From the NCBI GenBank assembly GCA_964591715.1, contig CAZQDR010000001.1:1487-65486 (forward strand): a DNA stretch of 64,000 nucleotides, given 5' to 3'. Both the position numbers and the translations under genes were made by a program. Positions 8,833-9,374 of the stretch are shown here, in pieces. The notes below the pieces were generated by a model. That model searched no databases and had not been told where the DNA came from. It worked only from the letters and a program-made list of their open reading frames with translations. The DNA comes from an uncultured Candidatus Saccharibacteria bacterium (GTDB taxonomy: Bacteria; Patescibacteriota; Minisyncoccia; Phycocordibacterales; JACOZG01). Position 1 is the first letter of the stretch. Every line of letters begins with the position of its first letter.

Positions 8833-9103
8833 GGTGAGTGGGACGATAATGTGGTTGCTTTAAGCGAATGGGTTCCTGTCCCACTCACCACAATAGGTGC
8901 TTAAGAACTAGAACCTTCCTGTCCGATTGGACGATGTTAACTGTGTTCTTAAGCCAACCCCTGGCTCGCCAATGCGCGTCAGGGGTCCTCTTCAGAGTTC
9001 ATAATGTTTTGTGGGTTCTGAAGAGGGTACGATTATCGGTTTGACTCAAAAGAGACGAGAAAGGAGATGTACCCTCTAAAATAAGCTAGCTCTTTCTGTA
9101 CGA
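8833..9103 (+). ncRNA. structured RNA unit 1 (~271 nt): A, B, GC-hairpin, D, C modules
   Basis: A: ggtgagtgggac(8833-8844)/gtcccactcacc(8878-8889). B: gcttaagaac(8899-8908)/gttcttaagcc(8945-8955) with inner gtcc-gatt-ggac. GC hairpin 8958-8985. D: cctcttcagag(8987-8997)/tctgaagagg(9017-9026). C: agagggtac(9022-9030)/gtaccctct(9068-9076). Confidence 0.55.
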
Positions 9104-9374
9104 GGTGAGTGGGACGATGTTAGTGCTGCTTTAAAGCTAATGAATTCATGTCCCACTCACCACAATAGGTGGCTTGAGAACGAGAACAGTGATGTCCACT
9201 CGGACGAGCCCCTCCTTGTTCTTAAGCCAACCCCTGATTCGCCACCGCGAATCAGGGGTCCTCTTCAGAGTTCATAAGATTTTGTGATTTCTGAAGAGGG
9301 TACGAATCATCGAATGTCTGAAAAGACGATACGATTACTGTACCCTCTAAATATCTGAGACGAAAGGCGGTTTG
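9104..9374 (+). ncRNA. structured RNA unit 2 (~271 nt), same scaffold as unit 1 with different internal-loop sequences
   Basis: identical stems (ggtgagtgggac 9104-9115 etc.); inner hairpins conserved (gctttaaagc, gtcc-actc-ggac, gtctg-aaaa-gac); flanking 10-14-nt loop strands unrelated to unit 1; period 271 nt. Confidence 0.55.

Follow-up and report, generated by a model that had tools for sequence, protein, structure and literature searches.

A very probable stem-loop TIGR array beside tasR in a Patescibacteria chromosome, with three tandem copies of a three-guide cassette

Results and discussion

A tasR gene lies between two groups of stem-loop units

The window analysed here, a 64-kb stretch of DNA from an uncultured Candidatus Saccharibacteria bacterium (contig CAZQDR010000001.1, positions 1,487 to 65,486), carries a tasR gene (7399..8625, + strand) whose 408-aa product consists of a RuvC-like N-terminal domain with an insertion, a coiled coil and a Nop-like C-terminal domain. 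The non-coding DNA on either side of the gene, some 650 nt upstream and 800 nt downstream, is dense with hairpins, and within them we identified 15 stem-loop units of 46–60 nt (∼55 nt), all on the + strand between 6746 and 9400. Six lie upstream of tasR (6746–7306) and nine downstream (8619–9400), so that the array is on the tas strand and adjoins the gene on both sides. We consider it very probable that these repeats are part of the stem-loop TIGR (tandem interspaced guide RNA) array of the adjoining tasR, on the chromosome of a member of the Patescibacteria (candidate phyla radiation, CPR).

TIGR-Tas systems, described in 2025, are compact RNA-guided DNA binders or cutters that need no protospacer-adjacent motif (PAM) and are under development for genome engineering. 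Stem-loop TIGR arrays exist beside dual-repeat arrays (Faure et al., 2025, PMC12045711). The published stem-loop arrays have two spacers of 8–12 nt, box C/D flanks and variable palindromic stems, and lie upstream of, downstream of or overlapping tas (Faure et al., 2025; Xu et al., 2026, bioRxiv 10.64898/2026.09.09.750476); 2,559 of them, upstream, downstream or inside tas, have been catalogued (Xu et al., 2026). The present locus, which is not named in the available parts of the text of these two papers, belongs to a kind of system already described and is a well-formed, ordinary example of it. It adds a complete CPR case in which 15 guides accompany a 408-aa TasR, predicted to be nuclease-dead, and sites resembling promoters and terminators.

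An earlier note, made from the letters of the window alone, had described 8833–9374 as two tandem 271-nt units with invariant stems and hypervariable loop strands, and had argued that a scaffold with guide-like diversified loops is not what neutral decay of a duplication gives. That argument is upheld, the features being guide RNAs, and the locus shows that guide-RNA logic can be recovered from sequence alone. The 271-nt repeat is, however, not the working unit that it was taken for. It is a cassette of three guides; nine further units on both sides of the gene had been overlooked, and the link to the adjoining tasR had not been drawn.

Architecture of the guide units

All units follow one plan: a 5′ stem ending in C, then GA, the 9-nt spacer A, UG, an inner hairpin, C, GA, the 9-nt spacer B, UG and the 3′ stem. 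The stem closes on a C-G pair around the two spacers, each of which is preceded by a box C (C-GA) and followed by a box D (UG). The UG is invariant at 30/30 half-sites, and CGA precedes 24 of the 30. The 12-nt ‘loop strands’ of the earlier note correspond to GA, the 9-nt spacer and the U of the invariant UG.

Pairing in the stems was assessed in a box-anchored core alignment of the 15 units. There, 97% of stem cells are paired, as compared with only 30–50% in slid controls. Seven of the nine stem pairs change on both sides, and the observed covariation score was reached in none of 500 shuffles. Predicted folds support the stems, and folding z-scores are −18.8 for the downstream array and −9.2 for the upstream array.

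A looser scan, requiring only a stem and an inner hairpin, was too permissive (∼150 matches per strand) and was replaced by a scanner anchored on the boxes, which accepts only candidates that have the C..UG anchors, six or more base pairs in the stem and an inner hairpin. Over the 64-kb window this scanner returned 13 matches within 6746–9400, one weak match elsewhere on the + strand (51597) and none on the − strand; it omits two units, B0 and C2, because each carries an extra mismatch. The pattern is not that of a known repetitive extragenic palindromic (REP) or miniature inverted-repeat transposable element (MITE) family, and copies are absent from the rest of the window. Nothing in the region reaches an Rfam gathering score, permissive thresholds included. 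The sole Rfam match, to the animal microRNA mir-4659 at 8704–8772, over copy 1 of an accessory hairpin (D) described below, is sub-threshold (28.6 bits against 92) and spurious.

Three tandem copies of a three-guide cassette

The 271-nt cassette comprises three stem-loop guides with different stems (A, B and C), a G+C hairpin and the D hairpin. The segments 8833–9103 and 9104–9374 have a mean column identity of 84% (MAFFT), and a repeat search of the window places in-register copies 271–279 nt apart. These segments are thus tandem copies, as claimed, but they do not align end to end. Homology spans ∼245 nt, and the final ∼25 nt cannot be aligned because the second copy continues into a different guide unit, E (9355–9400). 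A third, more diverged and older copy lies upstream; it begins with B0 at 8619, inside the end of tasR and overlapping its stop codon. The 271-nt repeat is absent from the Tandem Repeats Finder (TRF) output for the window, in which the sole array is a 21-nt tandem repeat at 14229–14270 (1.9 copies, 85% matches).

The A, B and C stems are as originally described, including the single A-to-G, G-U-compatible change in B, and four C copies are present, at 6996–7050, 8756–8813, 9022–9077 and 9295–9348. The inner element of C had been called conserved; its sequence and length in fact vary, and only the GUC..GAC closing pairs are kept. Compensatory change in the G+C hairpin was borne out only in part, by one true double change (C-G to U-A); the remaining differences are one G-U to A-U change and one mismatch that became a pair.

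The TasR protein resembles RNA-guided TIGR-Tas proteins and lacks two RuvC catalytic residues

The NCBIfam model NF052498 TIGR_Tas_endo (‘TIGR-Tas system RNA-guided endonuclease’) matches residues 180–391 of the protein with E = 2.8e-42 and 145 bits, against a cut-off of 100. Pfam gives Transposase_20 and a sub-threshold match to DEDD_Tnp_IS110 (15 vs 29), and the NCBIfam models transpos_IS110 (41.7 bits, cut-off 140) and transpos_IS110_2 (12.8 bits, cut-off 180) both fail. Among PDB sequences the only relative at E < 1e-5 is 9MTY, to which the family profile adds IS621 weakly. An AlphaFold2 model made with 40 homologues (pLDDT, the predicted local distance difference test score, 89.4) has long helices at 169–208 and 230–250. 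When it was compared with the PDB by Foldseek, 9MTY, a TIGR-TasR with tigRNA (the guide RNA) and target DNA, came first (E = 5e-13), followed by IS621 and ISCro4 and then by TasH. Homologues are abundant, nearly all of them in Patescibacteria/CPR genomes, and many are labelled ‘transposase’ in databases. The protein matches none of the PADLOC defence models.

The RuvC motifs read IGI-T8-HR and VAM-T104-LGGSG, the first two catalytic positions being non-acidic. The family consensus of 40 sequences is IGI-R8-HR and VAM-x-LGGSG, with a variable, non-acidic position 104. A large CPR clade of TasR proteins with an expanded, inactive RuvC domain has been reported, in which CsTasR has R8 and V126 at the first two catalytic positions (Xu et al., 2026). 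The same catalytic motifs as in the window occur in a protein of Candidatus Buchananbacteria (RIFCSPHIGHO2_02_FULL_56_16 scaffold_15087) that is 41% identical over its full length and is named as a TasR with inactivated RuvC by Faure et al. (2025). Since T8 and T104 replace the first two acidic residues, DNA binding without cutting is predicted, and homology makes it quite probable that the window TasR is nuclease-inactive and acts in the manner of a repressor.

Stem-loop Tas proteins have no C-terminal Y/H processing loop (Xu et al., 2026). Likewise, the last helix of the window TasR (368–394) is followed by 14 residues (the IAPVENNEGENAAAA region) that are devoid of Tyr and His and disordered in the model, so that there is no such loop. 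The stop codon of the gene (TGA, 8623–8625) falls within the 5′ stem of B0 (8619–8629); in the closest relative, L001, a TAG lies in the stem (ggcuuagaggac).

Units of the same kind accompany tasR in related genomes

The family was surveyed in 81 homologous loci from GTDB genomes of Patescibacteria (470 kb). At least one unit was found in 63 of the 81; 507 units share the strand of tasR, and a single one lies on the other. At both half-sites the family consensus reads [G/A]AC-GA-N9-UGU[C/U], the stem being followed by GA in 423/504 units and the inner hairpin in 393/504.

The closest relative that differs from the window (L001/L007) has a TasR 64% identical and the same surroundings, with RNase R upstream and SMC, RNase III and NusB-NUDIX downstream; this shared context indicates that the locus is vertically inherited rather than mobile. 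Its flanks hold the same kind of units, with stems that are homologous but diverged and spacers that are entirely different, and a B0-type unit again overlaps the end of tasR. Two further contigs that encode an identical protein (L003 and L004) are 100% identical to the window.

Scaffolds are conserved while spacers turn over

Across the three cassette copies the stems are 95–97% identical, the inner elements 69–87%, the linkers and accessory hairpins 59–85%, and the spacers 22–38%, which is the random level. The contrast between conserved stems and hypervariable loop strands drawn in the earlier note thus held good, and the loop strands are not conserved in orthologous or paralogous copies either. 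In the two youngest copies 10/34 spacer positions (29%) are identical as compared with 58/68 linker positions (85%; Fisher p = 5e-8). As three side-by-side cassettes combine near-identical scaffolds with unrelated spacers, the locus offers a natural, internally controlled case for array expansion and spacer change.

The same pattern was seen across the family. Units with identical stem cores occur in 26 of 59 multi-unit loci and make up 84 pairs, whose spacers are 29% identical as compared with 27% in pairs with unrelated stems. In 34 pairs with 30-nt flanks at least 70% identical (mean 81%), spacer identity is 32%, and flank identity and spacer identity are uncorrelated (Spearman 0.13, p = 0.24). 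Intermediate pairs are few: one in L048 matches at 7/9 positions in both spacers, and one in L021 at 8/9 in one spacer and 3/9 in its partner, so that the two spacers of a unit can change independently. Stem types recur in order (BDE..BDE in L021, repeated blocks in L005), and immediate neighbours rarely share a stem; distinct neighbouring stems probably keep each unit folding independently.

We infer that arrays grow by duplication of units or cassettes, after which spacers, through either replacement or selected point mutation, turn over far faster than other positions. How spacers are acquired is stated to be an open question by both Faure et al. (2025) and Xu et al. (2026). One proposal is that duplication leaves the scaffold intact and a dedicated process then replaces or hyper-diversifies the spacers in situ, the D hairpin serving as a folding or processing switch for the guide that follows it, with its 3′ arm competing with the 3′ strand of the guide stem. 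We regard this as rather unlikely; an ordinary alternative to a dedicated process is that all scaffold positions are under strong purifying selection and the spacers under fast positive selection. Two features are modestly new: the duplication of cassettes whose spacers turn over completely, and the conserved D hairpin.

Predicted mode of action

Conserved CUU motifs are found in linkers at the processing boundaries of published arrays, and in CPR-clade tigRNAs the loop carries a hairpin and pairing extends over 9 nt of each spacer (Xu et al., 2026). By homology, transcripts of the window array would be cut in the linkers near CUU into single stem-loop tigRNAs. The processing-related signs in the window are its promoter-like and terminator-like sites and its CUU-containing linkers only. 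A TasR dimer would then use its Nop-like domains to bind one tigRNA at the two pseudo-symmetric box C/D sites, and spacer A would pair with one DNA strand and spacer B with the opposite strand of the adjacent 9 bp. As 8-nt 3′ overhangs are reported for TaTasR, one target strand should read spacer A followed by the reverse complement of spacer B, giving an 18-bp target without a PAM; the predicted target of unit A1 is TAATGTGGTGGAACCCAT. The complex would bind without cutting and so serve as an RNA-guided repressor or blocker, as was shown experimentally for the related CsTasR; CsTasR and TasA are reversible RNA-guided transcriptional repressors (Xu et al., 2026).

Evidence against the assignment and alternative explanations

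Several observations weigh against the TIGR assignment or its details. No guide matched the 64-kb window with up to 3/18 mismatches in either half-site order; at four mismatches there were 21 self-matches against a mean of 11.7 for shuffled spacers, several of them inside the array. In viral contigs, exact 18-mer matches numbered 0 for A1, 1 for B1, 0 for A2, 0 for B2, 3 for C2 and 3 for C3, while wrong-order controls gave 4 for C2 and 3 for C3, and no contig was matched by a second guide. As the matches are no more frequent than those of the controls, they are noise; natural targets are mostly undeterminable for 18-nt guides according to the authors of the TIGR paper. Box C is CGA here as against CCA (TaTasR) or CUU (PateTasR) in the solved complexes, so that recognition of CGA by the protein is presumptive. 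The TIGR model as published does not provide for the G+C and D hairpins. Finally, the third and fourth acidic RuvC positions (E146 and D149) are retained, and nuclease inactivity is read from a family-consensus alignment and from residue numbers in a preprint, through a putative equivalence with the CsTasR numbering.

The last of these points bears on whether the RuvC domain of a TIGR-TasR system is still active here, or whether the system is a nuclease-based defence against phages or plasmids instead of a repressor. The NCBIfam family is named for an endonuclease, TaTasR and ParTasR are active nucleases, D149 is nearly invariant across the family, and an arms race with mobile elements would be expected to give rapid spacer turnover. 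Nevertheless, the whole family is non-acidic at positions 8 and 104, neither CsTasR (R8/V126) nor PateTasR cleaved in vitro and both repressed reporters, the 41%-identical relative is given as inactivated, and viral targets do not rise above noise. We therefore hold an active nuclease to be distinctly unlikely.

An IS110/IS1111-type insertion sequence, the structured flanks of which would be bridge (seek) RNAs base-pairing with target and donor DNA during recombination, could be suspected from the Pfam matches, the ‘transposase’ labels of many homologues, the second-best structural matches (IS621 and ISCro4) and internal loops with two variable strands, like those of bridge RNAs. The earlier note had itself pointed to bridge RNAs, and it hit on the right superfamily because TasR and IS110 recombinases share the RuvC and Nop-like fold. 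The details fail: there are 15 small units in place of one ∼180-nt two-loop RNA, with uniform 9-nt spacers bounded by CGA and UG, and neither target and donor loops sharing a core dinucleotide nor a handshake arrangement is found. Moreover, IS110 models score far under their cut-offs, the first two DEDD residues are missing, the position between RNase R and SMC/RNase III is the same in the genome with the 64%-identical TasR, and no second copy lies in the window, all of which makes such an element very improbable. The explanation that the repeats are a non-functional tandem duplication or REP/MITE-like palindromes, with stems kept by chance or gene conversion, has in its favour that the cassette is indeed a tandem duplication, that intergenic palindromic units are typical of REP elements and that the units have no Rfam family. 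It is hardly credible, as each unit has diverged only within two 9-nt islands, in contrast to the stems and linkers, and gene conversion is rejected because conversion tracts would not leave such islands untouched. The stems covary, and in 63 of 81 distant genomes the units keep to the neighbourhood of tasR and strictly to its strand (507 vs 1), while the window has none elsewhere bar the weak match at 51597 and none on its − strand. The TIGR assignment is thus retained.

Comparison with known systems

The array most resembles the CPR-clade stem-loop arrays typified by CsTasR of Candidatus Staskawiczbacteria. They share the host phylum, a TasR whose expanded RuvC domain is catalytically crippled, units that flank the gene on either side and overlap its end, palindromic stems of variable sequence, a pair of spacers in each unit that pair over 9 nt apiece, a hairpin between the spacers, an invariant UG box D, CUU linkers and a protein without the Y/H processing tail. 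It differs from CsTasR in the size of the protein (408 aa vs 547 aa) and in a box C that is CGA, and from CsTasR-type arrays as published (Faure et al., 2025; Xu et al., 2026) in its three copies of a three-guide cassette and its accessory G+C and CUUCAGAG hairpins.

TaTasR, from a dual-repeat array of the Thermoproteota (PDB 9MTY), is the best PDB match by both structure and sequence. Common to both are 9-nt spacers A and B, a UG box D, a box C whose C pairs with the G of box D and, on the predicted mode of action, a pseudo-two-fold tigRNA bound by a protein dimer. Its array, however, has short, fixed edge and loop repeats that give a uniform 36-nt tigRNA, and its RuvC domain is active (D11). 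In the window array the edge repeats give way to long variable stems and the loop repeat to an inner hairpin, and the protein is missing the first two catalytic residues.

IS110/IS621 proteins (PDB 8WT6/8WT9) have a homologous RuvC and Nop-like architecture, and the internal loops of the IS621 bridge RNA likewise have two strands that read two DNA strands. IS621 differs in having one RNA with target and donor loops, an intact DEDD motif, a serine Tnp domain and mobility, whereas the window locus has many small single-loop guides, fails the IS110 models, has lost catalytic residues and occupies a fixed chromosomal position. The order of terminal stem, box C, guide, box D′, box C′, guide and box D, and the predicted binding by a Nop-domain coiled-coil dimer, recall the archaeal/eukaryotic box C/D small RNAs of Nop5-fibrillarin-L7Ae particles; unlike those, the window units lack RUGAUGA/CUGA boxes, kink-turn motifs and fibrillarin or L7Ae partners, and would target DNA instead of rRNA in a bacterial host. 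Tandem conserved scaffolds that alternate with variable guides and stand beside an effector gene are also features of CRISPR arrays, as is processing to single guides, which is predicted here. In contrast to CRISPR arrays, however, there are two 9-nt spacers per unit that would read opposite DNA strands, neighbouring scaffolds differ, there are no cas1/cas2 or other adaptation genes, and no PAM would be needed.

Positions and spacers of the individual units

All features in this and the following section are on the + strand. The first upstream unit, U0 (6746..6792; AGCGAC-GA-CTGCGTACG-UG..C-GA-AGACACGGG-UGUUGCU), was found by the motif and pairing scanner; it stands alone, apart from the main upstream sub-array, and was absent from the earlier note. 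It is followed by U1 (6877..6930, spacers CCAAGGACU and GCUGACACU), C0 (6996..7050, CGAAGGCUG and AUAUGGCAG), U2 (7057..7110, GAAGGUAUU and GUACACAGC), after which comes a conserved linker, UUUUGAUCUU, and U3 (7132..7182, UAAUCGGGA and AGUAUUUAA). U4 (7252..7306, AGGGUACAG and ACGGUCUCU) lies in the tasR leader, and an orthologous unit occupies the same place in L001.

Downstream, the oldest cassette contributes B0 (8619..8676, GUCCAUCAC and UAGUUGACC), whose stem has two mismatches and whose 5′ strand contains the tasR stop, and C1 (8756..8813, CAGUAGAGA and UUGGUACGA). The next copy consists of A1 (8832..8890, UAAUGUGGU and AUGGGUUCC), which is module A of unit 1 in the earlier note, B1 (8899..8954, GAACCUUCC and UGUUAACUG), with CUA as its first box C, and C2 (9022..9077, UUAUCGGUU and GAAAGGAGA), with an A-A mismatch in the inner hairpin. 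The last copy has A2 (9104..9161, UGUUAGUGC and AUGAAUUCA), in which the second box C is CUA, B2 (9170..9229, GAACAGUGA and GCCCCUCCU) and C3 (9295..9348, AUCAUCGAA and UACGAUUAC), and the array ends with E (9355..9400, AAGGCGGUU and UAGCCACAC).

Accessory hairpins, linkers and transcription signals

Every C-type unit is preceded by two hairpins, a stable one of variable sequence and then the D hairpin. The former keeps its position in every cassette while its sequence differs: copy 0 (6934..6959, G+C-rich, cccgcc..ggcggg, from the sequence and the minimum free energy (MFE) fold), copy 1 (8682..8715, guuccucau..augaggaac), copy 2 (8958..8985, G+C-rich, ccccuggcucgcc..gcgcgucagggg) and copy 3 (9231..9258, G+C-rich, ccccugauucgcc..gcgaaucagggg, a perfect 12-bp stem). 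Copies of the D hairpin lie at 6961..7000 (copy 0, CCUCUUCAGAG..UUCUGAAGAGG), 8716..8760 (copy 1, CCUUUUCAGAG..UUCUGAAGAGG), 8987..9026 (copy 2) and 9260..9299 (copy 3).

The conserved element of D is CUUCAGAG, its 5′ arm is CCUCUUCAG, and the 5 nt AGAGG belong both to its 3′ arm and to the C stem (5′ strand), as in copy 0 with C0. Such an overlap had been proposed to make the two structures mutually exclusive or pseudoknotted. The overlap is real, but in the MFE fold D is shortened to CUUCAG/CUGAAG and stacked on the C stem, and both helices coexist. The consensus, CYCUUCAGAG..UCUGAAGRGG, stands directly before one guide unit and has 3–6 nt in common with the 5′ stem strand of that unit. A D-type TTCAGAG..TCTGAAG core with a unit whose stem starts RGGG is also present in L001/L007 (5322–5367 in L001), L042 (3894–3937) and L086 (2370–2412), the TasR proteins of which are 40–64% identical to that of the window, so that the element occurs in four lineages. 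In L001 a compensatory T-A to C-G change in D has a matching counterpart in the C-stem 3′ strand. A D-type element is absent from both Faure et al. (2025) and Xu et al. (2026). A search for a promoter within D gave no convincing −10/−35 pair. Partly because it carries a CUU motif, the D hairpin may have a role in folding or processing, and it could bear on how stem-loop tigRNAs are processed.

Most linkers of the window array that exceed 8 nt contain CUU. After units whose 3′ stem ends in CCCC there is a linker motif that contains CUU, UUUGAUCUU (variants UUUGCUCUU and CUUGAACUU), at 7111–7131 and 7307–7326 in the window, at 3660–3675 and 5417–5432 in L001 and several times in L005.

Transcription signals were sought by consensus matches and by reading the sequence. 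A promoter-like TTGACT..TATAAC site, read from the sequence, lies upstream of U0, and the unit is followed by a terminator-like hairpin (6793..6830, accccu..aggggu, then UUUAUUUU), which was likewise read by eye and is not in the consensus scan. A second promoter-like region, TTGACA followed by ..tggtagttatat, stands directly before U1 (6842..6873) and is presumed to function as such; a TTGACA..tggtagttttat arrangement also precedes the arrays in the orthologous locus L001. Intrinsic-terminator-like hairpins with a T-run end the upstream sub-array after U3 (7185..7227, the hairpin at 7185–7217) and the downstream array after E (9402..9437, the hairpin at 9402–9429). This arrangement suggests three transcription units: U0 alone, U1 to U3, and U4 with tasR and the nine downstream units. 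The tasR leader (7310–7398) folds into two hairpins (MFE), the second of which pairs ccuuc with gaagg of the likely ribosome-binding site and could occlude translation initiation.

Chromosomal neighbourhood

Genes for RNase R (4132–6063) and, two genes downstream, RNase III (11679–12365) bracket the TIGR-tasR locus, as they do in L001, an arrangement of note with regard to the nuclease that processes tigRNAs. The bracketing may be coincidence, because other family members have different genes beside them, such as mraZ/rsmH in L005. On the − strand, 6360–6692, immediately upstream of the array, encodes a small Phage_holin_4_2-family membrane protein (E = 6.5e-34), in place of which the syntenic L001 has a different small gene. 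In the 52%-identical relative L005, two small called open reading frames (100 and 33 aa) lie between repeated cassette copies at 3171–3571; a degenerate guide unit seems to run into them, which could reflect array decay or mis-called genes.

Some records with a CPR-type tasR are titled ‘uncultured Gammaproteobacteria’, ‘Bdellovibrionales’ or ‘Saccharibacteria’ (L010, L015, L041 and L061, as well as many ‘Candidatus Saccharibacteria’ loci). These taxon labels are probably wrong, because the TasR proteins and arrays look Parcubacteria/Paceibacteria-like. Elsewhere in the window, tRNA-Ser(GGA) at 40213–40300 was detected by ARAGORN only and not by the Rfam tRNA model at its gathering threshold, while tRNA-Thr at 23814–23889 was found by both.

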